26,578 nucleotides of DNA from a bacterium (GTDB taxonomy: Bacteria > Acidobacteriota > Blastocatellia > HR10): contig JBEPZV010000035.1 of the NCBI GenBank assembly GCA_041640655.1, positions 1-26,578 on the forward strand, in the 5' to 3' direction. A program made the position numbers and the translations under genes. Below, piece after piece: positions 11,564 to 22,542 of this stretch (positions are counted from its first letter, which is position 1; every line of letters starts with the position of its first letter). The notes beneath the pieces were generated by a model. It made no database searches and was not told where the DNA came from. It saw only the letters and a list, made by a program, of their open reading frames with translations.

Positions 11564-12841
11564 ATGAGAGTTCTCGTCATCGGCTCAGGGGGACGCGAGC
11601 ACGCGTTGGTGTGGGCGCTGGCGCGCAGCTCCGGCGTCACGGAGGTCATCGGCGCGCCGGGCAATGGAGGCATCACTGAGCAGGCTCGCTGCGTGCGCGC
11701 CGACGTCGGGAATCCGCGCGAGCTGGCCGACGTGGCCGAAGCGGAAGGCGCCGCCCTCACCTTCGTCGGTCCGGAATTGCCTTTGGTCAATGGCGTCGCC
11801 GATGAATTCGCCCGACGCGGACTCCGGCTCGTCGGCCCCGATGCGCGCGCCGCGCGATTGGAGGGGAGCAAAGCCTTCGCGAAAGAGTTCATGGCGCGAC
11901 ACGGCATCCCGACGGCGCGCTTCGCGATCTGCGCCTCCGCAGCCGAAGCTCGACGCCTGATCGCCTCCGGGCGCTTCGGCTTCCCCCTCGTGATCAAAGC
12001 CGATGGATTGGCGGCCGGAAAAGGCGTGAGCATCGCGCACACGCCGAGAGACGCCGAGGAGATCATCGAGCGCTTCATGGTCCAGAGAGTGCTCGGCCCG
12101 GCGGGCGAGCGCGTCGTCTTGGAGGAGTGCTTGACCGGGCGCGAATGTAGCTTCTTCGCCTTCACTGATGGGGAGTTCGTGCTCCCCCTGCCTCCGGCGC
12201 AGGATTACAAGCGCGCGCACGATGGTGATCACGGCCCGAATACGGGCGGCATGGGGGCGATCTCCGCTCCGCATCTGCTCGATGCGGCGACGCGCGAGCG
12301 CATCTTGCGAGAGATCGTCGAGCCGACCATCCGAGCGGCCGCGCGCGAAGGTTTCCCGTATCGAGGCGTCCTCTACGTGGGCCTCATGCTCACGCCAGAA
12401 GGGCCGCGCGTGCTCGAATACAACGTGCGCCTGGGGGATCCCGAAGCGCAAGCGATCCTCCCCAGATTGGAGAGCGATCTGTTGGAGATCGGCGAAGCTC
12501 TCGTGATCGGCTCGCTCTCGCGCATCCGGCCGCGGTGGAGCGCGGACGCCACCGTGTGCGTGGTCCTCGCCTCGGGCGGCTATCCGGGAAGCTATCACAC
12601 GGGCTACCCGATTCAGGGCCTCGAAGACGCGCGACGGTTGGCGGGGGTGCTGATCTTCCACGCCGGGACGACGCGCGCGCCTGATGGATCGTTCCAGACC
12701 GCCGGTGGTCGCGTCCTCAACGTCGTCGCGCGCGGTCGAACGCTCGCCGAAGCGCGCGCGCGCGCCTACCAGGCGGCCTCGCTCATCACCTTCGAACGCA
12801 TGCACTATCGGCGCGACATCGGCGCTGAGTGGAGCGGATGA
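11564..12841 (+). CDS. purD: Phosphoribosylamine--glycine ligase
   Basis: VLVIGSGGREHAL, APGNGG, VGPE.PL..G, LEGSK.FAK.FM, VIKADGLAAGKGV, QDYKR..DGD.GPNTGGMG, EYN.RLGDPE and FHAGT..GGRVL motifs. Confidence 0.98.
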   Translation: MRVLVIGSGGREHALVWALARSSGVTEVIGAPGNGGITEQARCVRADVGNPRELADVAEAEGAALTFVGPELPLVNGVADEFARRGLRLVGPDARAARLEGSKAFAKEFMARHGIPTARFAICASAAEARRLIASGRFGFPLVIKADGLAAGKGVSIAHTPRDAEEIIERFMVQRVLGPAGERVVLEECLTGRECSFFAFTDGEFVLPLPPAQDYKRAHDGDHGPNTGGMGAISAPHLLDAATRERILREIVEPTIRAAAREGFPYRGVLYVGLMLTPEGPRVLEYNVRLGDPEAQAILPRLESDLLEIGEALVIGSLSRIRPRWSADATVCVVLASGGYPGSYHTGYPIQGLEDARRLAGVLIFHAGTTRAPDGSFQTAGGRVLNVVARGRTLAEARARAYQAASLITFERMHYRRDIGAEWSG

Positions 12842-12880: not shown

Positions 12881-13837
12881 TCACCGGCTCGCGGACCTTG
12901 GTTCGGAACGCCGTCGCATCGCGTGTTCGGAGATGAGGCGCGAGATCTCGGCGATGAGCCGCTGCGCGTCGCGCTCCTCGGCAATCCCGCGCGTGAGGAC
13001 GACGAGCACATAAGGCGGCCCGACGGGGGGATAGATAATCCCCGCATCGTGCGCGATTCGGGTGATCGCCCCCGTCTTATGCGCCACGCGCACGCCGGGG
13101 GGCAAGCCAGCCGGGATCCCCTCGTTGAACTCCTGATCGAGCAGCAGGCGCACCATCTCCGCGCAGCTCTCCGGCGAGATGGCGCGTCCTTCGGCGAGCC
13201 GTCGAAACAGCAGCAGCAACGCGCGCGCCGTCGTCGTATTATTGAGCCCGCGCTCGAACGCCCGGCGATCCTCCACGCCTCGGAGGACGCGCATGCCCTC
13301 GATGCCCATCTCCCGCATCAACTGCTGCACGCGCGCGGCCGTGACGCGCTCGATGAGGAGATTCGTCGCCAGGTTACTGCTGCGCGTGATCATGGCGCGC
13401 ACCAGCTCGCGAATCGTCACCGCCTCCCCGATCTTCTCGTAGAGCGCGGGATCGGAATCGCTCTCCGGCGCGAGGGAGAACGAACTGCCATCGGCGAGAC
13501 TCCGAAATTCGTTCACCACCACGAGACGATCCTCCAGGGAGAGTCGCCCCTCATGCGCCTGCCGGAAGACCTCCAGCATCACCGCCACCTTCATCGTACT
13601 CGCCGCATGGAACGGCTCATCCGCCCGCAGGAGCAACTCCTCGCCGGTCGCCAGATCGGCATACGCCACAGCGACGGCCTCTGCGCCACTGGCGGCGATG
13701 GCGCGTTCAATGCGCGCCTTCACCCCCGAGAGGTCTGAAGCGATCGCAGGCGAGACGATGGCCAGTAGGAAGATGAAGATTCGCGCGCCATCCCGAACTC
13801 GAGTGCGGTGACCGGTTCGACCAAGCGTGTTCGCCAT
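12881..13837 (-). CDS. Exported serine hydrolase of the class A beta-lactamase-like family
   Basis: SxxK (ASTMK), SxN (SSNLATN) and KTG (HKTG) motifs; signal peptide. Start moved to ATG 13837 because a strong promoter lies at 13869-13897. Confidence 0.88.
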   Translation of the reverse strand: MANTLGRTGHRTRVRDGARIFIFLLAIVSPAIASDLSGVKARIERAIAASGAEAVAVAYADLATGEELLLRADEPFHAASTMKVAVMLEVFRQAHEGRLSLEDRLVVVNEFRSLADGSSFSLAPESDSDPALYEKIGEAVTIRELVRAMITRSSNLATNLLIERVTAARVQQLMREMGIEGMRVLRGVEDRRAFERGLNNTTTARALLLLFRRLAEGRAISPESCAEMVRLLLDQEFNEGIPAGLPPGVRVAHKTGAITRIAHDAGIIYPPVGPPYVLVVLTRGIAEERDAQRLIAEISRLISEHAMRRRSEPRSASR

Positions 13838-13868
13838 ACCGAACGCTCCGTCTCCGTTCGCTCCGCAG

Positions 13869-13897
13869 AGCGTATCAACCTTCGGAGAGATTGTCAA
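13869..13897 (-). promoter_or_regulatory. Sigma70 promoter for the serine hydrolase
   Basis: Minus strand: TTGACA, 17 bp spacer ending in TGa, then TACGCT. Confidence 0.7.
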
Positions 13898-13955
13898 TGC
13901 CCCCCCCTTCCGCGGGGAGGCGCGCGAATTCCGCATAGTCCCAGCCTCCACCTTG

Positions 13956-13964
13956 TGATAAACT
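13956..13964 (+). promoter_or_regulatory. Extended -10 element upstream of the pspA operon
   Basis: TGaTAAACT, about 90 bp upstream of the pspA ATG; no clear -35. Confidence 0.35.
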
Positions 13965-14051
13965 ATGGCACGGAATCCGTCGTATAAGAACACGTGACCG
14001 AGGGGCTCGCGCGTCAGATCCCCTCGGCATTTGAGAGGAGGCCTGCGGACG

Positions 14052-14834
14052 ATGTGGCAACGACTCAAGCGGCTCTTACGAGCCATCTTCGGGGGGCTCA
14101 TCGAGCGCGCGGAGGACCCGGAGCTGATCCTGCAACAGGTCATCCGCGACATGCGCGACAAGCTCCCCCAGATGAACGAGAATGTCGCTCAGGTCATGGC
14201 CACGCAGAAGCTTCTGGAGAAAGAGGTCGCGACCCTGGAGCGAGAGATCACCGAATTCGACGCCAAGATTCGCGCGGCCATCAAGCAGGGACGGGATGAT
14301 CTCGCCACGGCTTTCATCAGCGCCTTGCAGGAGAAACAGGTCGCCCTGGAGCGCTCCCGCCAGCAATTGGAGGCGGCTCGCCGGGCCTCGGAACAAGCGA
14401 TTCGCTTCCGCGACAACTACATCTTGCAGCTGAAGAAGCGGCAGCAAGAGGCCATGCAACTCATCGCCGAACACCGTCGGGCCCGCATTCAGGAGCAATT
14501 GGCGCAGACGATGGCCAGCTTCCAACTCGGCGACGAGGCCGGGACGTTCGAGGAGATGCGAGAGAAAGTCGCGCGCCGCGTCGCGGCGGCCGAGGCGAAG
14601 ATGGAGCTGGCGTCCACGGGCGTCGAGAGTCAGATCGCGGAGATCGAGAAGGAGGCCCTCTCGATGCAGGTCCAGGATATGCTGCTCGCCTACAAGCGAC
14701 AGATGGGGCTGCTGCCGGAGACGCCAGCGGCGACGCTCCCAGCCGGAGAGACGACTGCCCTGCCGGAGAAGACGCTCGGACCGGCCGAAGAAGAACCCGC
14801 GCGTCCGGAACCGACGAGGGCGAGTGAGGGATGA
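14052..14834 (+). CDS. pspA: PspA/IM30 (Vipp1/ESCRT-III superfamily) protein with a Pro-rich C-terminal tail
   Basis: ATG 14052 behind GAGGAGG. Amphipathic N-helix MWQRLKRLLRAIFGGLIERAEDPE, then LQQ.IRDM, AIKQGRDDLA, FEEMREKV and long coiled coils. Confidence 0.9.
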   Translation: MWQRLKRLLRAIFGGLIERAEDPELILQQVIRDMRDKLPQMNENVAQVMATQKLLEKEVATLEREITEFDAKIRAAIKQGRDDLATAFISALQEKQVALERSRQQLEAARRASEQAIRFRDNYILQLKKRQQEAMQLIAEHRRARIQEQLAQTMASFQLGDEAGTFEEMREKVARRVAAAEAKMELASTGVESQIAEIEKEALSMQVQDMLLAYKRQMGLLPETPAATLPAGETTALPEKTLGPAEEEPARPEPTRASEG

Positions 14835-14924
14835 AGCACGAACGCCGTCGCGCGAGGAATCAACCGGAGAGCCGAGGGCTCTCCGCACTCGAAGACAGCC
14901 CTCACGCTGTGTGAGGATGCGATT

Positions 14925-15743
14925 ATGGCGTCACGCATGGCATACATCTGGGAAGCGCTCAAGGAACCCGTGAACCTCTGGGCCATCGTCGGCGTGCTCG
15001 CCGCCGCCCTCTACGCCGATCCGCCGCTGAACACGCTCATTCTGCTGGGGGGCGCTGCGGCTGAGGTCCTCTACCTGCTGACGGTACCGGCGACAGCGGC
15101 CTACCAACGCCTTGCCGAGCGTCGCTGGCGACAACGCGCGGCGGCGGAACGACAGCGCGCGCGCGAGGAGTTGATCAAATCCTTCGATCCGCGTGAGCGG
15201 GAGGCCGTCGAATACCTTCGCTGGCTGAAGAAGCAGATCTACGCGAACTACATGCGCTTCACCCGCTCCAAAGAGGTGCCCGCCGATATCCGCACGCTCG
15301 ACGCCATGTGGGAGCGATTCGTGGATTTCCTCGATCTCTATCGCCGCTGCAAGACGCACCTGCGCGCGTTCAACCGCCAGGCCGTCCTGAATCAGATCGC
15401 GCAGGCGGAGCGCGCGCTTCACTCCGCCGATGAGAAGACCCGGCGGGTGATCGAGAACAACCTGAATATCCTGCGCGGGCGGCTGGCCGAATATGAGAGC
15501 ATCGAGCGCGCCGTGAAGCTGCTCGAAGCTCAACTGCAGACGATCGAGAACTTCTTCGGCCTAGTCAACGACAAAGTCATGACGATGTCCTCCGTGGAGA
15601 GCATCGCGGCCCTCGATTTCGAATCGGTGCTCTCGAGCATCGAGATGACGCGCTCGGTCCTGGAGGAGACAGCGCCGATCATGAGCGCCCTGGAAGCGCT
15701 CGAGCGCGAGCAAGCGCCGCCGCTGACGCCCGAACGCCAATAG
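14925..15743 (+). CDS. Hypothetical membrane-anchored alpha-helical/coiled-coil protein
   Basis: Two N-terminal hydrophobic segments followed by heptad-rich helices. Host-like codon usage; ends 4 bp before the AAA gene. Confidence 0.75.
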   Translation: MASRMAYIWEALKEPVNLWAIVGVLAAALYADPPLNTLILLGGAAAEVLYLLTVPATAAYQRLAERRWRQRAAAERQRAREELIKSFDPREREAVEYLRWLKKQIYANYMRFTRSKEVPADIRTLDAMWERFVDFLDLYRRCKTHLRAFNRQAVLNQIAQAERALHSADEKTRRVIENNLNILRGRLAEYESIERAVKLLEAQLQTIENFFGLVNDKVMTMSSVESIAALDFESVLSSIEMTRSVLEETAPIMSALEALEREQAPPLTPERQ

Positions 15744-15747
15744 GTCC

Positions 15748-17463
15748 ATGTCGCGCCCGAGACCCTTCCTCTCACTCGACGAGATCACGCGCCTCCCGCG
15801 ATGGGCCGGCGAACTGGTGCGAAAGTACTACGCGGGCGAAGCGAGCCATTTCCTCCTGCATCACAACATCCACGATCTCGTCCCAGCCAACGGCCAATAC
15901 GTGGGGTTGCTCGCGTTCTTGCAGCGGAAGCTGCTCGGCAACAAAAACATCGTCCTCTACAACCGCAGCGAGGGGATCACCTTCGGTTCCCCGGAAGCCG
16001 AACGCCAGTTCCTCGCGCAGGCGCGTGTGGCCGATCCGCTCCTCAGTCGCGAGGCCCTGCGCTCGCTCCCTCGCGAGCCGAGTCGCGCCCTCCCACTCAT
16101 CGAGCGCTACCTCTTTCACGGGGACCAGGTCGCCGTCATCATCACCTTCCTGGAGACGCTCGTCCCGGCCGGGGAGATCGGATACTTGAGCGGCGAGGAC
16201 CGCAACACGTTGGTCACCCTCCAGCGCTGGATCACCAGCTCGCGCCTGCTCCATTCGGACAACATCGTCATCCTCATCGCCGAGAGCCTGGCCGACGTCA
16301 ACGCGCGCATCCGGCAGAATTCGCGCCTGGTGACGATCGAGATCCCCTATCCCGATGAGAACGAGCGACTGGCCTTCATCCGCCATTTCCGCGCGCTCAA
16401 TCCCAACGTGCGGCTGGAGATGGATGACCGCCAATTGGCGCAGCTCACCTCGGGATTGAACTACGTCCACTTGAACGCCCTGCTGCGAAGCGCGCCGCTA
16501 GATCCGCGCGGCTTGACCTTCGAGGCCGTTCGGTTGAAGAAGAAGGAGATCATCGAGAGCGAGTGCTTCGGCCTCATCGAGTTCGTGACGCCCGAACACG
16601 GGTTGGAGAGCGTCGGTGGGATGACGAGCGCTAAAGAATTCCTCCGTCGCATCGCTGAGACGATCCGACAAGGGCGCTGGGAGGAAGCGCCGATGGGGAT
16701 CCTCATCTCCGGTCCCGTCGGCACGGGGAAGACGTTCCTGGCCGAATGTTTCGCCAAAGATTGCGGATTGAACGTCGTCGAGTTCAAGAACTTCCGCGAG
16801 AAATGGGTGGGCTCGACCGAGGCCAATCTGGAGAAGATTCTCAATCTCTTGCAGACGCTGGCACCGATCGTCGTCCTCATTGACGAGGCCGATGCGGCGC
16901 TGGGGACGCGTCGCGTCGAGGGCGACAGCGGCGTGAGCGCGCGCGTCTTCTCTCGCATCGCGAGCGCCATGGGCGACACGCGAAACCGAGGGCGCATCCT
17001 CTGGATCCTCATGACGTGCCGCCCGGATCTGCTCCCCATCGATCTCAAACGGCAGGGCCGCTGCGAGGAGCACATCTCGCTCTTCTACCCGCAGAGCGAA
17101 GAGGAACGCCTGGAGATCATTCACGCCATGCTGCGGAAGAACAAGATTCGGCACGCCATTGAGGATTGGTCCCCGATCACCCGACATCCGCAGGAGCTGT
17201 CGGGCGCCGACATCGAATCCCTGCTCATTCGCGCGCGGCGTCTGGCGCGGCAGGCGCAGCGCGACCTGGTGCTGCCCGAAGACCTCGAACGGGTCGCCCA
17301 AGAATTCATCCCCGCGCGCGATGAGCTGGCCTTGGAATATCAAACGCTCGTGGCCATTCTGGAGGCGACCTCGCGCGAGATGATCCCGCCGAAATATCGG
17401 CACCTCTCCCCGGCCGAGATCAGCCGCCGCGTGGAGGAGCTGAAGCGCCTGCTCGGCGAGTGA
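15748..17463 (+). CDS. Classical-clade AAA+ ATPase with a degenerate N-terminal AAA-like domain and an active C-terminal domain
   Basis: Walker A GPVGTGKT, pore loop KWVGSTE, Walker B VLIDEAD, SRH with RQGR, SGADIE. The N-terminal half has LLHHNIHD in place of a P-loop and an IEIPYPDENER helical-lid motif. Confidence 0.9.
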   Translation: MSRPRPFLSLDEITRLPRWAGELVRKYYAGEASHFLLHHNIHDLVPANGQYVGLLAFLQRKLLGNKNIVLYNRSEGITFGSPEAERQFLAQARVADPLLSREALRSLPREPSRALPLIERYLFHGDQVAVIITFLETLVPAGEIGYLSGEDRNTLVTLQRWITSSRLLHSDNIVILIAESLADVNARIRQNSRLVTIEIPYPDENERLAFIRHFRALNPNVRLEMDDRQLAQLTSGLNYVHLNALLRSAPLDPRGLTFEAVRLKKKEIIESECFGLIEFVTPEHGLESVGGMTSAKEFLRRIAETIRQGRWEEAPMGILISGPVGTGKTFLAECFAKDCGLNVVEFKNFREKWVGSTEANLEKILNLLQTLAPIVVLIDEADAALGTRRVEGDSGVSARVFSRIASAMGDTRNRGRILWILMTCRPDLLPIDLKRQGRCEEHISLFYPQSEEERLEIIHAMLRKNKIRHAIEDWSPITRHPQELSGADIESLLIRARRLARQAQRDLVLPEDLERVAQEFIPARDELALEYQTLVAILEATSREMIPPKYRHLSPAEISRRVEELKRLLGE

Positions 17464-17489
17464 CCGGTCCACCGCGCACCCACGCGGGA

Positions 17490-17518
17490 TTGCCCGCGCG
17501 AGCCCCTCGGTCTACAAT
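17490..17518 (+). promoter_or_regulatory. Sigma70 promoter for ggt
   Basis: TTGCCC-17 bp-TACAAT, upstream of RBS GGAGGG and ATG 17541. Confidence 0.65.
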
Positions 17519-17540
17519 CTGCGATGACCGGAGGGAACCG

Positions 17541-19283
17541 ATGAAGAGTCTGTCAGGGACGATCACCGTGCTCTGGCTCGGCTTCCTCGCGCTGATGCCC
17601 CTTCTCGCGCTCGTGACGAGGCCATCGGGCGCGGCGGCGCAAGACCGATGGCAGGCGCGCTCGATGGTGATCTCGCAACATGGGATCGTGGCCAGCGAGC
17701 ACCCGCTCGCCTCGCAGGTGGGCGCCCTGATCCTGGCGCGCGGCGGACACGCCGTGGACGCGGCGATCGCGGCCAACGCCGTCATGGGTGTGGTCGCGCC
17801 GATGAGCAACGGCATCGGCGGCGATCTGTTCGCACTCGTCTACGACGCGCGGACCGGTCGGCTTCACGGATTGAACGCCAGCGGATGGGCGCCTTCGGGG
17901 CTGACCATTGAATTCCTGAAGCGCCAGGGACATACGACGATGCCCCAACGCGGCGTTCACACGGTGACCGTTCCCGGGGCGGTGGACGGCTGGGCGAAGT
18001 TGCACGCGCGCTTCGGACGCGTGAAATGGGCCGATCTCTTCACCGCCGCCATCCAGTACGCCGAAGACGGTGTGCCCATCACGGAGCTGGTCGCCGACCT
18101 CTGGGCAGCCAACGAACGCCTGCTGCGTCAGAATCAGGAGGCGGCGCGCACGTATCTGCCTCAGGGTCGGGCGCCGCGCGTGGGCGAGATCTTTCGCAAT
18201 CCCGATCTCGCGTGGAGCTATCGGCAAATCGCCGCACACGGCCCTGCGGCGTTCTACCAGGGCGAGATCGCCCGCCGCATCCTGAGCGCGCTCCGGCGAG
18301 AGGGCGGGACGATGACGGCGGCGGATCTCGCCGAATTCTCCAGCGAATGGGTCGCGCCCATCTCGACGACCTATCGCGGCTGGACCATTTACGAACTGCC
18401 CCCCAATGGGCAGGGGATCGCCGCGCTGATCATGTTGAACATCATGGAGCAGTTCCCCCTGGCCGAATTCGGACACAATTCCGCGCGCGCTCTCCACATC
18501 ATGATCGAAGCGAAGAAGCTCGCCTACGCCGACCTGATCCGTTACGTCGCCGATCCGCGATGGGCGCGCGTTCCGGTGTCGGGCCTCCTCTCGAAAGAAT
18601 ATGCCCGTCAGCGCGCGCGCCGCATAGACTCGGCCAAAGCCCAGTGCGAGGTCGAGCCCGGAATCCCCCCGGACGCGGGCGATGAGACCATCTACCTGAG
18701 CGTCGTGGATCGCGAGGGGAACATGGTCTCGCTCATCCAGAGCAACTACGAGAGCTTCGGCTCAGGACTCGTCGCCGAAGGGACGGGCTTCGCCTTGCAG
18801 AATCGCGGCGCCCTCTTCAGTTTCGATCCCGCGCACCCGAATGCGCTCGCGCCACGAAAGCGCCCGCTGCATACGATCATCCCCGCCTTCATGGAGCGGG
18901 GGAACGTGCGCATCGCCTTCGGCATCATGGGGGGATGGAATCAAGCGCAAGCGCACGCGCAGTTCGTCTCCAACATTGTGGATCACGGCCTGAACCTTCA
19001 GGCCGCGCTCGAAGCCGCGCGCTTCACCAAGCGGACCTTCGGCGGCTGCGACGTGCAGATCGAAGCGCGCGTCCCCGAACGTGTGCGCGTGGAGCTGCAG
19101 GCCCTCGGCCATCAGCTCCAAGTGCGCGGCGCGTATTCCTCGCAGATGGGAGGCGGACAAGCCGTCGCCCGCGATTTCACGACGGGAGTGAACTTCGGCG
19201 CCTCCGATCCCCGCAAGGATGGGGCTGCCGTACCGGAGCCCTCGCCCGCGCTGCTCGCCTCGCCTCCACTGAATGAGCGGTGA
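17541..19283 (+). CDS. ggt: Gamma-glutamyltransferase (exported)
   Basis: Signal peptide; GG.AVDAAIA, GIGGD.F, TVPGAV.GW and PPNGQG motifs; nucleophile Thr in ETIYLSVVD.EGN.VS; KRP.HTIIP, GIMGG and GASDPRKDG. Confidence 0.95.
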   Translation: MKSLSGTITVLWLGFLALMPLLALVTRPSGAAAQDRWQARSMVISQHGIVASEHPLASQVGALILARGGHAVDAAIAANAVMGVVAPMSNGIGGDLFALVYDARTGRLHGLNASGWAPSGLTIEFLKRQGHTTMPQRGVHTVTVPGAVDGWAKLHARFGRVKWADLFTAAIQYAEDGVPITELVADLWAANERLLRQNQEAARTYLPQGRAPRVGEIFRNPDLAWSYRQIAAHGPAAFYQGEIARRILSALRREGGTMTAADLAEFSSEWVAPISTTYRGWTIYELPPNGQGIAALIMLNIMEQFPLAEFGHNSARALHIMIEAKKLAYADLIRYVADPRWARVPVSGLLSKEYARQRARRIDSAKAQCEVEPGIPPDAGDETIYLSVVDREGNMVSLIQSNYESFGSGLVAEGTGFALQNRGALFSFDPAHPNALAPRKRPLHTIIPAFMERGNVRIAFGIMGGWNQAQAHAQFVSNIVDHGLNLQAALEAARFTKRTFGGCDVQIEARVPERVRVELQALGHQLQVRGAYSSQMGGGQAVARDFTTGVNFGASDPRKDGAAVPEPSPALLASPPLNER

Positions 19284-19291
19284 TCTCTTGC

Positions 19292-19315
19292 AGGGGCGAC
19301 GCCGACATCGCCCCT
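19292..19315. terminator. Hairpin between convergent ggt and the ABC permease
   Basis: AGGGGCGA/TCGCCCCT 8-bp stem; no clear U-tract. Confidence 0.35.
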
Positions 19316-20465
19316 ACTCCAGCCGCCGCCGGAAGCGCCAGACGCTCAGGCCGAAGATGGCCACGCCGAAGATCAGCAGCGCCACCATCTGTGGCCAGAG
19401 CACTTCAATCCCCGTCCCCTTCAGGAAGACCCCGCGCACGATCTCCAGGAAATAGCGCACGGGATTCGCACGGGTGAGATATTGCACGGGCACGGGCATG
19501 TTCCGAATCGGGAAGGCGAACCCGCTCAACGTGAAGGCCGGCATGAAGAAGAAGAACGAAGCGAGCATGGCTTGCTGCTGCGTCCGAGAGATCGTCGAGA
19601 GGAAGACCCCCATGCCGAGCGTCGTCAGCACGAAGAGCACCGCACCGAGCAGGAGCACGAGCGCGCTTCCGCGAAACGGGACGCGGAAGATGAGAAGCGC
19701 TGCGCTCGTCACCAGGACGACGTCCACAAGGCCGATCAGCGCAAACGGCACGGTCTTGCCGAGAATGAATTCCACCGGGCGCAAGGGCGTCACCAGCAGT
19801 TGCTCCATCGTCCCCAACTCCCGCTCGCGCACGATGGCCATCGCCGTGAGGATCAGCGTGACGATCGCGATGATGTTGACCAGAACGCCCGGGACGAAAT
19901 AGTTCCGACTGCGCAGATCGGGATTGAACCAGACGCGCGTCTGCACCTGAAGCTCCGGGACCGTGATCGGCGCTTCCCGCGCGATCGCCAACGCCCTCAA
20001 CGTGCGCCGTTCCCGCTCGGCCATCACCTCATCCGCATAGCGCCGAAGGATGCGCATCGCATAGGCCATGAGGATGGAGGCCGTGTTCGAATTCGTCCCC
20101 TCGATGAGGATCTGCACGGCCGCCATCTCACCCCGCTGTACCCGCTCGGCGAATCCCGGCAGCACGCGCACGAGCATGAGCACGCGCCCGCGATCGAGCA
20201 GTTCGCGCCCCTCGTCCTCCCGCATGGGCGTCGCCACAACGCGAAAATGCGGCGACCCCTCGAAAGCGGCGCGCAATGCGCGACTGGCCGGCGTCCCATC
20301 CCCATCCATCCACGCGATGGGGGCTCGCTCGACATCCAAATTGACGGCGTAACCGAAGAGCGTGAGCTGAACCAGGGGCGGCAAAAACAGGAGGACACGC
20401 ATGCGCGGCTCGCGCAGCGCCTGCCGCAGTTCCTTCCGCATCATCTCCCGAATCCGCTCCCACAT
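19314..20465 (-). CDS. ABC-2 type transporter permease (YbhR-like)
   Basis: Start MWERIREMMRKELRQ at 20465 (the ORF track over-extends it). FGYAVN.D, WFNP.L.S..Y.VPG, ERE.GTMEQLLVTP and LSGF.FPI.NMP motifs. Confidence 0.92.
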   Translation of the reverse strand: MWERIREMMRKELRQALREPRMRVLLFLPPLVQLTLFGYAVNLDVERAPIAWMDGDGTPASRALRAAFEGSPHFRVVATPMREDEGRELLDRGRVLMLVRVLPGFAERVQRGEMAAVQILIEGTNSNTASILMAYAMRILRRYADEVMAERERRTLRALAIAREAPITVPELQVQTRVWFNPDLRSRNYFVPGVLVNIIAIVTLILTAMAIVRERELGTMEQLLVTPLRPVEFILGKTVPFALIGLVDVVLVTSAALLIFRVPFRGSALVLLLGAVLFVLTTLGMGVFLSTISRTQQQAMLASFFFFMPAFTLSGFAFPIRNMPVPVQYLTRANPVRYFLEIVRGVFLKGTGIEVLWPQMVALLIFGVAIFGLSVWRFRRRLE

Positions 20466-20470
20466 CACCG

Positions 20471-21604
20471 TCAGGCCAACCGCCGCTGCACGCACCGCGT
20501 GGCGAGTCCGAAGACGACGGCGGCGTACGCGATCAGAAACGCCACCTCCCCCACCAGCAACTCCACCCCAACCCCCTTCAAGAAGAGCCCGCGCAGGATC
20601 ACGATGAAATAGCGCGCCGGGACGAGATAAGTCACCGCCTGTACGACCGGCGGCATGTTCTCGATGGCGAAGATGAAGCCCGAGAGCAAGAAGGCCGGGA
20701 GGAATGACGTGAGCACTCCCAATTGATACGCGAGCACCTGCGAACGCACGAGCGCGGAGATGAGCACGCCCCAACCGAGCGCGCCGAACAGAAACAGCCC
20801 CCCCATCAGGAGGACCAGCAGCGGATCCCCCCGCAGCGGCACGCGAAAGAAGATGACGCCCACAAGGAGCGCGATGAGCATATCGAGCAGACCGATGGCG
20901 AAGAACGCGAGCATCTTCCCGAGGACGATCTCCGAAGGCCGCACCGGCGTCGAGAGCAGCTGCTCCATCGTCCCCATCTCCCACTCGCGCGCGAGGGTGA
21001 GCGACGCCAACAACGCAGCGATGATCATCAGGATGATGGCGATCAAGCCGGGGACGATGTAGTTGCGCGACCGCAGCTCGCTGTTGTACCAGACACGCAC
21101 GCGCCCGTCCACGGGTGGGTTCACCCTCACGCCCGTCGCGCGCCGAAGGACCGACATCTGCCACGACCCGACATGCTCGCGCAACAGCGCCTCCGCGTAG
21201 CCGAGAGCGATCGAGGCCGTGTTCGAGTCGCTGCCGTCGAGGATGAGTTGGATCGAAGCGCCCTCGCCCCGCAGCCAGCGACGGGAATAATCGGGCGGGA
21301 TCACCAGCGCCAGCAGACATCGCTGACGATCCATCTCGCGCCGGATGCGCGCGGGGTCTTCGACCATCCCGACCACATCGAAGAAGCGCGAGCCGGCGAA
21401 TCGCGCGATCAGGTCCCGACTCTGGGGGCTCCCATCGACATCGGATACGAGCACGGGGATGCGATCCACATCGAGCCGCAAGGCGTAACCGAACAACAGC
21501 AGCAGGACGATGGGCACAGCGAGCGCCAGCAGCAGACTCCTCGGATCGCGCCGGATGTGGAGGAACTCCTTTCGCGCCATCGCCCATGTGCGCCGCCACG
21601 TCAT
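20471..21604 (-). CDS. ABC-2 type transporter permease (YbhS-like)
   Basis: Start MTWRRTWAMARKEF at 21604, overlapping the upstream stop (ATGA). LFGYAL.LD, WYN.EL.SRNYIVPG and REWEMGTMEQL motifs. Confidence 0.92.
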   Translation of the reverse strand: MTWRRTWAMARKEFLHIRRDPRSLLLALAVPIVLLLLFGYALRLDVDRIPVLVSDVDGSPQSRDLIARFAGSRFFDVVGMVEDPARIRREMDRQRCLLALVIPPDYSRRWLRGEGASIQLILDGSDSNTASIALGYAEALLREHVGSWQMSVLRRATGVRVNPPVDGRVRVWYNSELRSRNYIVPGLIAIILMIIAALLASLTLAREWEMGTMEQLLSTPVRPSEIVLGKMLAFFAIGLLDMLIALLVGVIFFRVPLRGDPLLVLLMGGLFLFGALGWGVLISALVRSQVLAYQLGVLTSFLPAFLLSGFIFAIENMPPVVQAVTYLVPARYFIVILRGLFLKGVGVELLVGEVAFLIAYAAVVFGLATRCVQRRLA

Positions 21605-22542
21605 CGCTCGTTCCGCTCCCCCCCTTCGATCACGGCCACGAAGACGTCCTCCATCGAGGGCGCGACGACGTCGAGCCGAGAGATCGTGATCCCCCGCGCG
21701 TGCAAGGCGCGCTGAATGCGCTCGCGCGCTCGCTCGGGATCGCGCACGCGCAGGTGCATGCCCGCGCCAAAGAGCGTGATGCGCTCGACCGATGCCTCGC
21801 GCTCGAGCGCCTTCAAGCTCTCCCAGAGGTCCGACGACTCCAGATGCAGGAACGCCACCGACGCGAGCGACCGCGCGAGCGCCGCCGGCGCATCCAGCGC
21901 CACAATGCGCCCGCGATCCATGAGCGCCAGACGATGGCAATACGCCGCCTCATCCATGTAGTGCGTCGTCACCAGGATCGTCCGCCCGGCCTCCGAGAGT
22001 CGAACGATCATGTCCCAGAATTGACGGCGCGCGATCGGATCCACGCCCGACGTCGGCTCATCCAGGAAGAGGATCGGCGGCTCGTGCACGAGCGCGCAGC
22101 CGAGCGCCAGGCGTTGCTTCCACCCTCCGGGAAGCGCGCGCACCAGCCTTCGCCGCCAGGCCGTCAACCCCGCCATCTCCAGCACCTCCTGCTGGCGCTG
22201 ACGTCGGCGCTCGCGCGGCACCCCATAGAGACCGCTGAACAGCTCCACATTCTCCTCGACCGTCAAATCCTCATAGAGCGAGAAGCGCTGCGACATGTAC
22301 CCGATGCGCCGTTTGACCTGCTCCGCCTGGGCCACCACGTCCAGACCATCCACGCGCGCGCGCCCGCTCGTGGGGGCGAGCAAGCCGCAGAGAATGCGAA
22401 TCGTCGTGGATTTGCCCGCGCCGTTCGGCCCGAGGAGCCCGAAGATCTCCCCCCGCCGCACGCGGAAGGAGATGCGATCCACGGCGACGAATTCACCGAA
22501 TCGCTTGACCACGTCCTCGACCTCAATGGCCCACGCCGTCAT
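21601..22542 (-). CDS. ABC transporter ATP-binding protein (resembles the C-terminal half of YbhF)
   Basis: GPNGAGKST, YMSQRFSLY.DL, LPGGWKQRLAL, FLDEPTSGVDP and TTHYMDEA. Confidence 0.95.
   Translation of the reverse strand: MTAWAIEVEDVVKRFGEFVAVDRISFRVRRGEIFGLLGPNGAGKSTTIRILCGLLAPTSGRARVDGLDVVAQAEQVKRRIGYMSQRFSLYEDLTVEENVELFSGLYGVPRERRRQRQQEVLEMAGLTAWRRRLVRALPGGWKQRLALGCALVHEPPILFLDEPTSGVDPIARRQFWDMIVRLSEAGRTILVTTHYMDEAAYCHRLALMDRGRIVALDAPAALARSLASVAFLHLESSDLWESLKALEREASVERITLFGAGMHLRVRDPERARERIQRALHARGITISRLDVVAPSMEDVFVAVIEGGERNER

Follow-up and report, generated by a model that had tools for sequence, protein, structure and literature searches.

The window, a stretch of 26,578 nucleotides from a soil-type acidobacterium (contig JBEPZV010000035.1), carries three co-oriented genes on the (+) strand. 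The first, pspA (14052..14834), encodes a protein of 260 residues that belongs to the PspA/IM30 family of the ESCRT-III superfamily. After a spacer of 90 nt comes a gene referred to here as the middle gene (14925..15743), whose product of 272 residues consists of an N-terminal hydrophobic helical hairpin followed by an all-helical bundle, predicted to be cytoplasmic. The third gene (15748..17463) starts four bases after the stop of the middle gene and codes for a tandem AAA+ ATPase of 571 residues, in which a degenerate domain 1 precedes an active classical-clade domain 2. A first-pass annotation of the sequence had described this layout, with two transmembrane segments in the second product and a 4 bp gap before the third gene, and the analysis confirms it.

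The PspA protein matches PF04012 with an E-value of 1.9e-28 and 100 bits (cut-off 33.9), and its residues 2-216 align to positions 3-216 of the 220 in the model, which covers the whole helical core. The start MWQRL is consistent with 46 homologues, and the protein is the single PspA_IM30 match in the genome (3.1 Mb, 90% complete). The locus does not show the composition of a canonical Psp regulon, with PspB, PspC and a divergent PspF beside pspA. The annotation had noted the absence of pspB and pspC, which extends to the whole 90%-complete genome, where neither family gave a match. Its parallel statement on pspF holds for this contig, which has none of the 18 sigma-54-activator matches of the genome; a PspF-like regulator could be encoded elsewhere. 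Like the canonical systems (E. coli PspF-PspABC, B. subtilis LiaIH and M. tuberculosis ClgR-PspAMN), the window has PspA beside a small membrane partner, but its genome differs from them in having no PspB or PspC match. PspA of E. coli also touches an AAA+ protein, PspF, whereas the ATPase of the window lacks a DNA-binding domain and falls in the classical clade, not among the NtrC-type proteins.

The middle protein has no Pfam or NCBIfam match, and more than 2,500 homologues were found. Hydropathy and the model helices place the hydrophobic hairpin at residues 18-31 and 36-56 (14976..15092, (+) strand). The second segment is clearly transmembrane-like, with a Kyte-Doolittle 19-residue maximum of 1.84, and contains a nearly invariant Glu-47 (at least 90% in 79 sequences); the first segment is short and marginal (1.45). 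The AlphaFold model has N-terminal helices at residues 15-30 and 35-56 and an all-helical remainder, with a mean pLDDT of 92.3. This family has been named "TM + divergent Snf7" by Ravi et al. (PMC11237479), an assignment that was not reproduced here. Among the 25 Pfam families that most of the 79 homologues match there is no Snf7 family, a genome search with PF03357 at E <= 10 did not match the middle gene, and hhalign of the middle protein against the PspA alignment gave a probability of 2.4%. The best hit of a profile search of PDB sequences had an E-value of 0.54 and fell among unrelated proteins, and Foldseek on the PDB returned nothing at E <= 0.001. A fold search with VIA-align lists BAR, F-BAR and designed bundles at Z ~9, which is noise level, and the ESCRT-III chain of CdvB2 (9s99_B; Z 7.6, rmsd 4.1, 139 aligned residues) at rank 42 lies within the same helical-bundle noise. 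These results speak neither for nor against the ESCRT-III fold that the annotation had suggested looking for in this protein. A language-model lead from Atlas pointed to PspM (Rv2743c) with a score of 0.88; it was rejected, as PF25587 searched at E <= 10 in five genomes matched no middle-gene locus.

In the ATPase, PF00004 is confined to residues 318-444 (92 bits). The catalytic core of domain 2 (16711..17061, (+) strand) is invariant in 47 homologues and contains the Walker A motif GPVGTGKT (residues 322-329; 16711-16734), pore loop 1 KWVGSTE (352-358; 16801-16821), the Walker B motif VLIDEAD (376-382; 16873-16893), a pore loop 2 region (16918-16947), a sensor-1 stretch (17011-17028) and the arginine-finger stretch DLKRQGR (432-438; 17041-17061). 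Over the 47 homologues, 42 positions of the ATPase are invariant, and the Walker motifs, pore loops and arginine fingers of domain 2 are intact in all of them. The classical clade is recognised by Walker A, Walker B, an aromatic-hydrophobic-Gly pore loop 1 and two arginine fingers in a second region of homology, and the ATPase fits this description. The degenerate domain (residues 1-280; 15748..16587, (+) strand) differs from this: no Walker A was found in residues 1-290, where positions 36-45 read LLHHNIHDLV. The same residues 1-290 are nevertheless modelled as an AAA domain with a pLDDT of 89.5, and their best Foldseek matches are p97 ND1/D1 and proteasomal Rpt subunits (E 2e-9). A dead N-terminal and an intact C-terminal domain of the classical clade, with the pore loop KWVGSTE, had been read from the sequence beforehand, and both points stand.

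Kinship of the ATPase to CdvC, CDC48 and PAN was judged by profile scores. The best solved relatives are the D2 domains of Cdc48/p97 (E about 1e-41), and the scores are 44 bits with the NCBIfam CdvC model (cut-off 650) and 91 with the CDC48 and PAN models. No MIT domain was matched in Pfam at E <= 0.01, and there is no match to Vps4_C. With its tandem AAA architecture, this sets aside the ATPase as a Vps4/CdvC orthologue; judged from its sequence, it is an analogue of Vps4. The comparison with Vps4 drawn in the annotation therefore does not extend to kinship, the nearest scores being those of Cdc48-D2 and PAN. Membership of the Cdc48/p97 family was also rejected, since the TIGR01243 score of 91.5 bits, which comes from D2 only, falls far below the cut-off of 802.65 and Walker A is lost in domain 1. 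The ATPase resembles Cdc48, p97 and VAT in its two stacked AAA domains, of which domain 2 is the best sequence match and domain 1 the best fold match, but it differs from them in having neither a double-psi-barrel N domain nor a Walker A in domain 1. Clients or cofactors of Cdc48, p97 and VAT dock via short linear motifs.

No intrinsic terminators were found between the pspA, middle and ATPase genes; one terminator-like match, below chance expectation, lies inside the ATPase gene. The spacer between pspA and the middle gene (14835-14924) contains a 9-bp G+C-rich hairpin (14865..14885, (+) strand) with no T run. Its folding energy of -35.3 kcal/mol (z -1.6) was equalled by 14 of 200 shuffled sequences, and the hairpin is not significant. 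Downstream of the ATPase gene, a promoter-like site (17490..17518, (+) strand; TTGCCC-17-TACAAT) precedes ggt (ATG 17538). It is the sole such site in 13600-17800, with 0.3 expected by chance, and the downstream position of ggt is not kept in the relatives examined. The site marks the end of the module, in agreement with the annotation, which had given ggt a promoter of its own. A sediment metatranscriptome yielded seven short contigs of 61-346 nt, 93-99% alike, which fall at the end of the middle gene, in stretches of the ATPase gene and across its junction with ggt; such contigs cannot prove a transcript, DNA carry-over is possible, and the parts they leave uncovered are uninformative. A second metatranscriptome run gave chance matches of 19-33 nt only. 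The pspA, middle and ATPase genes may well constitute one operon, as part of the overall explanation given below.

A survey of 301 genomes of the phylum found PspA and the middle protein in all 26 genomes of the class to which the window belongs, and in 22 of them the middle gene directly follows PspA. Outside the class, the middle protein occurs in 19 genomes, 18 of which encode the ATPase as well, and the middle and ATPase genes are adjacent in 13 of these 18, at 20-29% identity. In loci outside the phylum, whose taxon groups were assigned by hand from database record titles, the same families occur in other arrangements. In the Planctomycetota they cluster in the shuffled gene order PspA-AAA-VWA-SBP/OmpA-permease-ABC-middle, with PspA in 10 of 13 loci and both partners in 7 of 13, and in the Myxococcota the middle gene lies ~6 kb upstream, at the flank edge, in 8 of 25 loci. 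The linkage is thereby confirmed for three phyla, Acidobacteriota, Planctomycetota and Myxococcota, although the order of the genes is shuffled, and conservation of the module is far beyond chance.

The association is not obligate. Family f4 (16 genomes) keeps pspA and the middle gene and is missing the ATPase, and demonstrates that the two proteins can function in its absence. Conversely, in the Spirochaetota none of the 16 ATPase loci has PspA or the middle gene within 7 kb. There the ATPase adjoins TPR and AAA_16 proteins in all 16 loci and the pocket residues described below are kept; a search of its neighbours for the tail motif found none, and the five genomes checked all have an ordinary PspA that does not bear the motif. 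A partnerless ATPase with a kept pocket, in genomes whose PspA has no motif, implies that the ATPase family has other clients or adaptors. The three genes had been proposed as a unit to be traced by synteny, and they emerge as a conserved module whose members can also occur apart.

The C-terminal tail of PspA contains the motif E239-K-T-L-G-P-A-E246 (14766..14789, (+) strand), in which Gly-243 is conserved in at least 90% of 47 PspAs. The motif was defined as K/R-x-L/I/M-G lying no more than 25 residues from the C-terminus of PspA, and counts were made among related genomes that are not independent of one another. By this definition, 44 of 51 ATPase-linked PspAs have the motif, five have a K-T-L/M terminus instead and two are different. 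None of the 16 PspAs of family f4 and none of 13 PspAs from genomes that lack the ATPase has it; the loss of motif and ATPase in f4 is one event in one clade. In four genomes that have all three genes dispersed, the motif is present in 4/4 and the pocket in both of the ATPases fetched. The five PspAs ending in K-T-L/M all pair with a lysine or arginine at position 64 of the ATPase, as do 0 of the 46 other pairs, a covariation that likewise belongs to one clade. At the two motif-less loci the ATPase has the replacements Y27V and G64T.

When the ATPase was modelled together with residues 196-260 of PspA, the predicted complex scored 0.64 (runs 0.65, 0.63 and 0.64), and the best of three controls scored 0.02. 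The score is a model confidence, and the pass mark was reached by 116 of 157 solved complexes and 2 of 215 mismatched pairs in the calibration of the tool, counts that apply here only roughly because our own alignments were supplied. The partner has a pLDDT of 57 in the model, and at least 67% of the contacts are common to the runs. The predicted interface pairs PspA residues 239-246 with ATPase residues 5-8, 24-30, 60-65, 127 and 169-173; on the PspA side these are exactly the eight motif residues out of the 65 offered. In the putative pocket, Tyr-27 is conserved in 43, Gly-64 in 35 and Asp/Asn-171 in 44 of 47 homologues. From this model, the short conserved tail of PspA looks like the grip handle of the ATPase. 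The link between PspA and the ATPase that had been put forward for complex modelling thus gains computational support, to which the co-varying tail motif adds.

The gene set is not new. It was catalogued by Ravi et al. (mSystems 2024; PMC11237479, text and supplement), who describe operons of PspA, "TM + divergent Snf7" and "inactive classical AAA + classical AAA" and propose ATP-dependent membrane remodelling like that of Snf7/Vps4. The co-directional PspA, membrane-anchored helical protein and tandem AAA with an inactive N-terminal copy make the window one more member of this operon type; the remark in the annotation that PspA-AAA neighbourhoods had been noticed before is correct but understated, as the exact trio had been published. 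A long form in the same paper contains PspA, PBPB+OmpA, a permease, an ABC ATPase, TM-Snf7 and the tandem AAA (PMC11237479). We see it again in other Acidobacteriota and rearranged in Planctomycetota, and the window differs from it as a compact three-gene form with no transporter. Neither a tail motif on PspA nor a docking site is mentioned in the relevant passages of that paper (PMC11237479), and the motif with its predicted pocket would be the new part beyond the published gene set. As the annotation had assumed, literature searches found no experimental test of this operon type. Its statement that model bacterial Psp systems have no disassembly ATPase is matched by a 2025 review, according to which a Vps4-like ATPase "appears absent in bacteria".

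The reading we favour, with moderate confidence, is that the operon encodes a system for membrane maintenance that is built on PspA and includes a dedicated ATP-driven remodeller. A polymer of PspA would coat or repair the cytoplasmic membrane. The middle protein, seated in the membrane by its hydrophobic hairpin, would serve as the membrane partner of PspA through its cytoplasmic helical bundle; the nucleation of PspA polymers that the annotation had ascribed to it gained no support. The ATPase would assemble into a two-tier ring, in which the dead first AAA domain may act as a docking platform for E-K-T-L-G-P near the PspA C-terminus and the active second domain would pull PspA through its W-V-G pore loops. 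Such pulling would extract or unfold PspA subunits and so take the polymers apart or turn them over.

ESCRT-III MIM motifs bind the MIT domain of Vps4. In the window, too, an ESCRT-III-superfamily polymer is encoded with a classical-clade AAA unfoldase, and a short motif in the flexible C-terminal tail of the polymer is predicted to dock near the N-terminus of the ATPase, on a part that is not catalytic. The parallel would be functional: Vps4 is recruited via MIT (PMC11746142), but the present system is made of unrelated parts, with no MIT or Vps4_C and a tandem AAA whose first domain is dead. We tentatively suggest that an E-K-T/S/E-L-G-P peptide binding in the dead-domain pocket allows the ATPase to thread PspA and recycle its polymers, an independently evolved code of the ESCRT-III/Vps4 kind. 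This would fit the shedding of the motif with the ATPase and the covariation of peptide and pocket, whose candidate residues include Tyr-27, Leu-62, Leu/Phe-63, Gly-64 and Asp/Asn-171. In the sequences the covariation appears to include PspAs that have switched to a C-terminal K-T-M carboxylate and whose ATPases have Lys/Arg at position 64.

Binding of PspA to the ATPase is equally compatible with PspA as adaptor or regulator and with PspA as substrate, and the docking prediction does not separate the two. As an adaptor, the tail would recruit or gate the ATPase at a stressed membrane, and the motor would extract or unfold clients other than PspA, for example membrane proteins that are damaged, the middle protein itself or components of a co-encoded ABC transporter. 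We regard this as a possible but distinctly less probable account. It draws on the Spirochaetota loci, where the ATPase with its kept pocket has TPR and AAA_16 neighbours in place of PspA, and on the long operons, where an OmpA-tethered solute-binding protein, a permease and an ABC ATPase accompany it; the transporter genes are, however, absent in the class of the window, where the ATPase remains with PspA, and no alternative client was identified. Substrates of Vps4 are polymer-forming proteins with a docking motif on a flexible tail, and the same layout in PspA speaks against the adaptor role. In its favour, E. coli PspA binds and regulates the AAA+ protein PspF (PMC7619361, PMC11746142).

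Alternatively, the ATPase could be an assembly chaperone or holdase that keeps PspA soluble and competent for assembly, or primes it, instead of taking membrane-bound polymers apart. A precedent is the reported action of cpHsc70-1 on the C-terminal tail of VIPP1, which controls oligomers (PMC12798727). There, too, an ATP-driven chaperone that controls oligomers takes hold of a PspA-family protein by its C-terminal tail, but the chaperone is of another class and the tail is not the same (PMC12798727). Docking of the tail on a non-catalytic domain would suit holding as well, but the invariance of the pore loops, Walker B and arginine fingers in 47 homologues points to active threading and away from a merely passive hold, and we think this account improbable. 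Least credible, and disfavoured, is that the genes are neighbours with no shared function, the motif being a lineage marker of a PspA subfamily and the complex a false positive. The motif-bearing PspAs may indeed form one subfamily, so that the co-occurrence would partly reflect shared descent, and two of the 215 mismatched pairs did pass the complex test. Nonetheless, the linkage persists at 20-40% identity in at least three phyla and in rearranged order, dispersal of the genes has not separated the motif from the pocket, and the complex model picked out the motif from the whole tail fragment.

How bacterial polymers of the ESCRT-III type, such as PspA and Vipp1, are disassembled is an open question, and this operon type offers the best candidate for a bacterial remodeller of such polymers. 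A defined PspA peptide of 6-8 residues and a defined ATPase pocket, both predicted, provide an experimental handle, and nature supplies controls in the sister family that has neither ATPase nor motif and in the clade with the compensating change. Together, peptide, pocket and natural controls make the hypothesis that the ATPase would bind PspA and disassemble its polymers directly testable.

The three co-oriented genes that the first-pass annotation described are present at 14052–17463, in a 3.1-Mb acidobacterial genome that is 90% complete. The first gene, pspA (14052–14834, + strand), encodes a 260-residue protein that matches PF04012 at 100 bits, and it is the only gene of that family found in the 90% complete genome. 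A spacer of 90 nt separates it from the middle gene (14925–15743, + strand), an open reading frame of 272 residues for which searches of Pfam and NCBIfam gave no match. The gene for a 571-residue AAA protein (15748–17463, + strand) starts 4 bases past the middle gene stop codon, which is the short gap noted before. The downstream ggt gene had been placed outside the unit; it is preceded by a 74-nt gap with a promoter-like site, and its position is not conserved among relatives. The reported lack of pspB and pspC was also borne out, as searches of the 90% complete genome gave no member of either family; as to pspF, the contig carries no sigma-54 activator. Upstream of pspA lies purD (11564–12841, + strand; GARS domains), as in three relatives of the class (loci L014, L020 and L022), and a class-A-type beta-lactamase-family gene (12881–13738, − strand; PF13354, E = 1.7e-59) is situated between the two on the opposite strand. 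Two long tandem open reading frames with hydrophobic C-terminal halves occupy 19314–21940 (− strand).

The ATPase combines a dead N-terminal and an intact C-terminal AAA domain, as had been read from the sequence. Residues 285–520 form a complete classical AAA module, with Walker A, Walker B, the pore loop KWVGSTE, a second pore-loop region and the DLKRQGR arginine fingers all present. Among solved structures, the closest matches to the protein are the Cdc48/p97 and VAT D2 domains (E about 1e-41). Residues 1–290 contain no Walker A and are modeled as an alpha/beta AAA domain with a lid (pLDDT 89.5), for which the top Foldseek matches are p97 ND1/D1 and proteasomal Rpt subunits (E = 2e-9). Although the system would work like ESCRT-III/Vps4 in the mechanism proposed below, the ATPase differs from Vps4 in lacking an MIT domain and in its tandem AAA architecture, and it scores 44 bits with the CdvC model versus 91 bits with the CDC48 and PAN models. 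For these reasons the PspA-ATPase system does not, judged from sequence, belong to the ESCRT-III/Vps4 system.

The middle protein starts with two hydrophobic segments, residues 18–31 (short and marginal) and 36–56, followed by a very basic stretch and a helical remainder. The AlphaFold model has a mean pLDDT of 92.3 and contains helices at 58–85, 89–113, 120–148, 151–167, 170–219 and 232–263. The family is large, with more than 2,500 matched proteins as a lower bound and 352 matched representatives at 50% clustering. Among 79 homologues Arg-186 is invariant, and Ala-11, Glu-47, Gln-203 and Glu-208 are conserved in at least 90%. Glu-47 lies inside the second hydrophobic segment (window positions 15030–15092), an uncommon placement in a simple membrane anchor. 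The ESCRT-III fold that had been considered for this protein did not emerge from fold searches, and its published Snf7 assignment was not reproduced: no Snf7 Pfam match was found, comparison with PspA by hhalign gave a probability of 2.4%, a profile search of PDB sequences returned nothing, and Foldseek returned nothing at E ≤ 0.001. VIA-align retrieved BAR, F-BAR and designed bundles with Z about 9 (145–150 residues aligned, rmsd 5–6) as well as one ESCRT-III chain, CdvB2, with Z of 7.6; for helical proteins, these matches do not rise above the stated noise. A lead from a language model (score 0.88) to PspM, the mycobacterial PspA partner, was not confirmed by the PspM Pfam model.

Gene order was surveyed in 301 genomes of the phylum, using the middle protein, the first domain of the ATPase and PF04012 as queries. 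PspA and the middle protein both occur in all 26 genomes of the class, the window's own included, and in 22 of them the PspA gene sits directly upstream of the middle one. Ten of the 26 also gave a match for the ATPase domain. It follows the middle gene in six of these 10 genomes, two of which have a TonB_C protein inserted between the two genes. The inserted protein has 334–338 residues and is seen in one family of the class (L018:3391–4407 and L019:2929–3933). All three genes are dispersed in four genomes, all from family f6. In family f4, all 16 genomes have the PspA-middle pair, and the first-domain query found the ATPase in none of the 16. What stays constant throughout the class is therefore the pair of PspA and the middle protein, and the ATPase is dispensable in the f4 lineage. 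Outside the class, 19 genomes carry distant middle-protein homologues (20–29% identical), and 18 of them have the ATPase, directly next to the homologue in 13 and at most 7 kb away in 15. In 14 of these 18, less than 8 kb separates PspA from the ATPase. PspA and the middle gene are 3.5–4.4 kb apart, and the DNA between them encodes a fusion of an NMT1/phosphonate-type solute-binding domain with OmpA, a BPD_transp_1 permease and an ABC ATPase. The claim that the three genes are conserved together holds for their linkage in the class and beyond it, and does not extend to f4 or to the dispersed f6 genomes.

One genome per species was also scanned for ATPase relatives. A total of 566 were confirmed, and the best 80 of the 566 were screened with purpose-built profiles and assigned to taxon groups by hand from record titles. 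Among these 80 loci, PspA and the middle gene were found in 19 and 18 of 21 Blastocatellia-like loci, 10 and 7 of 13 from Planctomycetota, 1 and 8 of 25 from Myxococcota/delta, 0 and 0 of 16 from Spirochaetota, and 4 and 2 of the five others. The Planctomycetota order is PspA, AAA, VWA, SBP-OmpA, permease, ABC, middle gene. In Myxococcota the middle gene is about 6 kb upstream, at the edge of the flank, the intervening genes being a Ser/Thr kinase and an ABC/FtsX pair of another kind. The Spirochaetota ATPases have large TPR and AAA_16 proteins as neighbors, and because these loci are without PspA, the ATPase family is, by its gene context, not restricted to PspA. At three of them (L092, L095 and L050) the pocket residues described below are kept, and the ATPase is found among a TPR/AAA_16 protein of ~1,000 residues, a conserved 115-residue protein and a 379-residue TPR protein. 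Five loci titled Heliobacteriaceae/Heliomicrobium (L038, L040, L041, L042 and L045) combine an ATPase 65–68% identical to that of the window with a Blastocatellia-type operon; their bin labels look doubtful.

In ATPase-linked PspAs, helix alpha-5 (AYKRQMGLL) is followed by a variable Pro/Ala-rich linker and then by E-K-T-L-G-P, which is residues 239–244 in the window's PspA. Gly-243 is among the top eight conserved positions in an alignment of 47 sequences. Of 51 loci that carry PspA together with the ATPase, 44 have K/R-x-L/I/M-G in the last 25 PspA residues, five end exactly with K-T-L/M, and two have a different tail. Variants among the 44 include T-K-E-L-G-P in Planctomycetota, E-K-T-I-G-P at a Riflebacteria locus and E-K-T-I-G-K at a Myxococcota locus. 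The motif is kept in all four genomes with dispersed genes. It is absent from all 16 f4 tails, in PspAs 49–61% identical to that of the window, and from all 13 PspAs of genomes where the ATPase was not found; the relatives in these counts are not independent, and the f4 loss counts as one event. The PspAs of five Spirochaetota genomes also have no motif. In genomes with an unlinked ATPase homologue, none of 10 readable PspAs has it, and seven of the 10 share another tail, Q/E-K/R-I-S-S. Six unlinked ATPases that were fetched belong to a divergent subfamily with a different pocket. These ATPases (L150–L155) show no PspA linkage and occur alongside PspAs with the Q/E-K/R-I-S-S tail (L122–L129); the two may represent a second peptide-pocket pair. 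A seventh, from genome G015, keeps the Planctomycetota-type pocket and is split over two reading frames (L158, contig C9 of that genome), which could reflect an error of assembly or the decay of this copy. Of two PspA matches in this genome, the longer one was fetched, and it has no tail motif.

A complex predictor received the full-length ATPase with an alignment of 47 sequences and residues 196–260 of PspA with an alignment of 46, the motif being unmarked. The complex scored 0.64 (0.65, 0.63 and 0.64 in three runs), versus 0.02 for the best of three controls, so that this check, suggested by the first-pass annotation, favors a predicted PspA-ATPase contact. Of 157 solved complexes 116 reached the pass mark, as did 2 of 215 mismatched pairs; with our own alignments this calibration is only rough. 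Partner pLDDT was 57, and at least 67% of contacts were common to the runs. The predicted confident interface on PspA is 239–246, exactly E-K-T-L-G-P-A-E. On the ATPase it comprises residues 5–8, 24, 27–28, 30, 60–65, 127, 169, 171 and 173, all of them part of the dead first domain. We know of no similar complex, and it therefore seems unlikely that the predictor passed by remembering a solved structure; the docking is a model's prediction. The predicted pocket is conserved at Tyr-27 (43/47), Leu-62 (33/47), Leu/Phe-63 (41/47), Gly-64 (35/47) and Asp/Asn-171 (44/47). All five PspAs ending with K-T-L/M pair with Lys or Arg at ATPase position 64, as do none of the 46 other pairs; this side chain could meet the free carboxylate of the tail. 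At the two loci without the tail motif, the ATPase carries Y27V and G64T. Both covariations fit a direct contact between PspA and the ATPase.

Taken to a mechanism, the dead first domain would form the tier on which the PspA tail docks, the live second domain would thread PspA so that polymers are disassembled or turned over, and the middle protein would be PspA's membrane partner. We give this reading an even chance. PspA might instead serve as adaptor or regulator and lead the motor to other clients, a reading favored by the precedent of PspF, by the occurrence of the ATPase without PspA in Spirochaetota and by the transporter genes in the cluster; we consider it rather unlikely. A holdase or priming role for the ATPase is less probable still. 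That the genes stay linked in several phyla even where their order has changed speaks for a common function, and the absence of any functional link among them is very improbable.

The module has a precedent in print. Passages of Ravi et al. 2024 (mSystems, PMC11237479) describe bacterial PspA co-occurring with a protein of two AAA+ domains, the N-terminal copy being inactive, and extended operons in which an ABC ATPase, a permease and a PBPB+OmpA protein are encoded as well, the same arrangement as found here outside the class. They propose an ATP-dependent membrane remodeling comparable to Snf7 and Vps4, and a 2025 review still states that a Vps4-like ATPase appears absent in bacteria. Full-text literature searches found no experimental study of this ATPase. 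The module is real and conserved, and it is ordinary, since it was predicted in 2024. The window contributes a compact member, and what is added is a specific, falsifiable hypothesis of recognition, in which the PspA tail would be bound by the dead domain of the ATPase.
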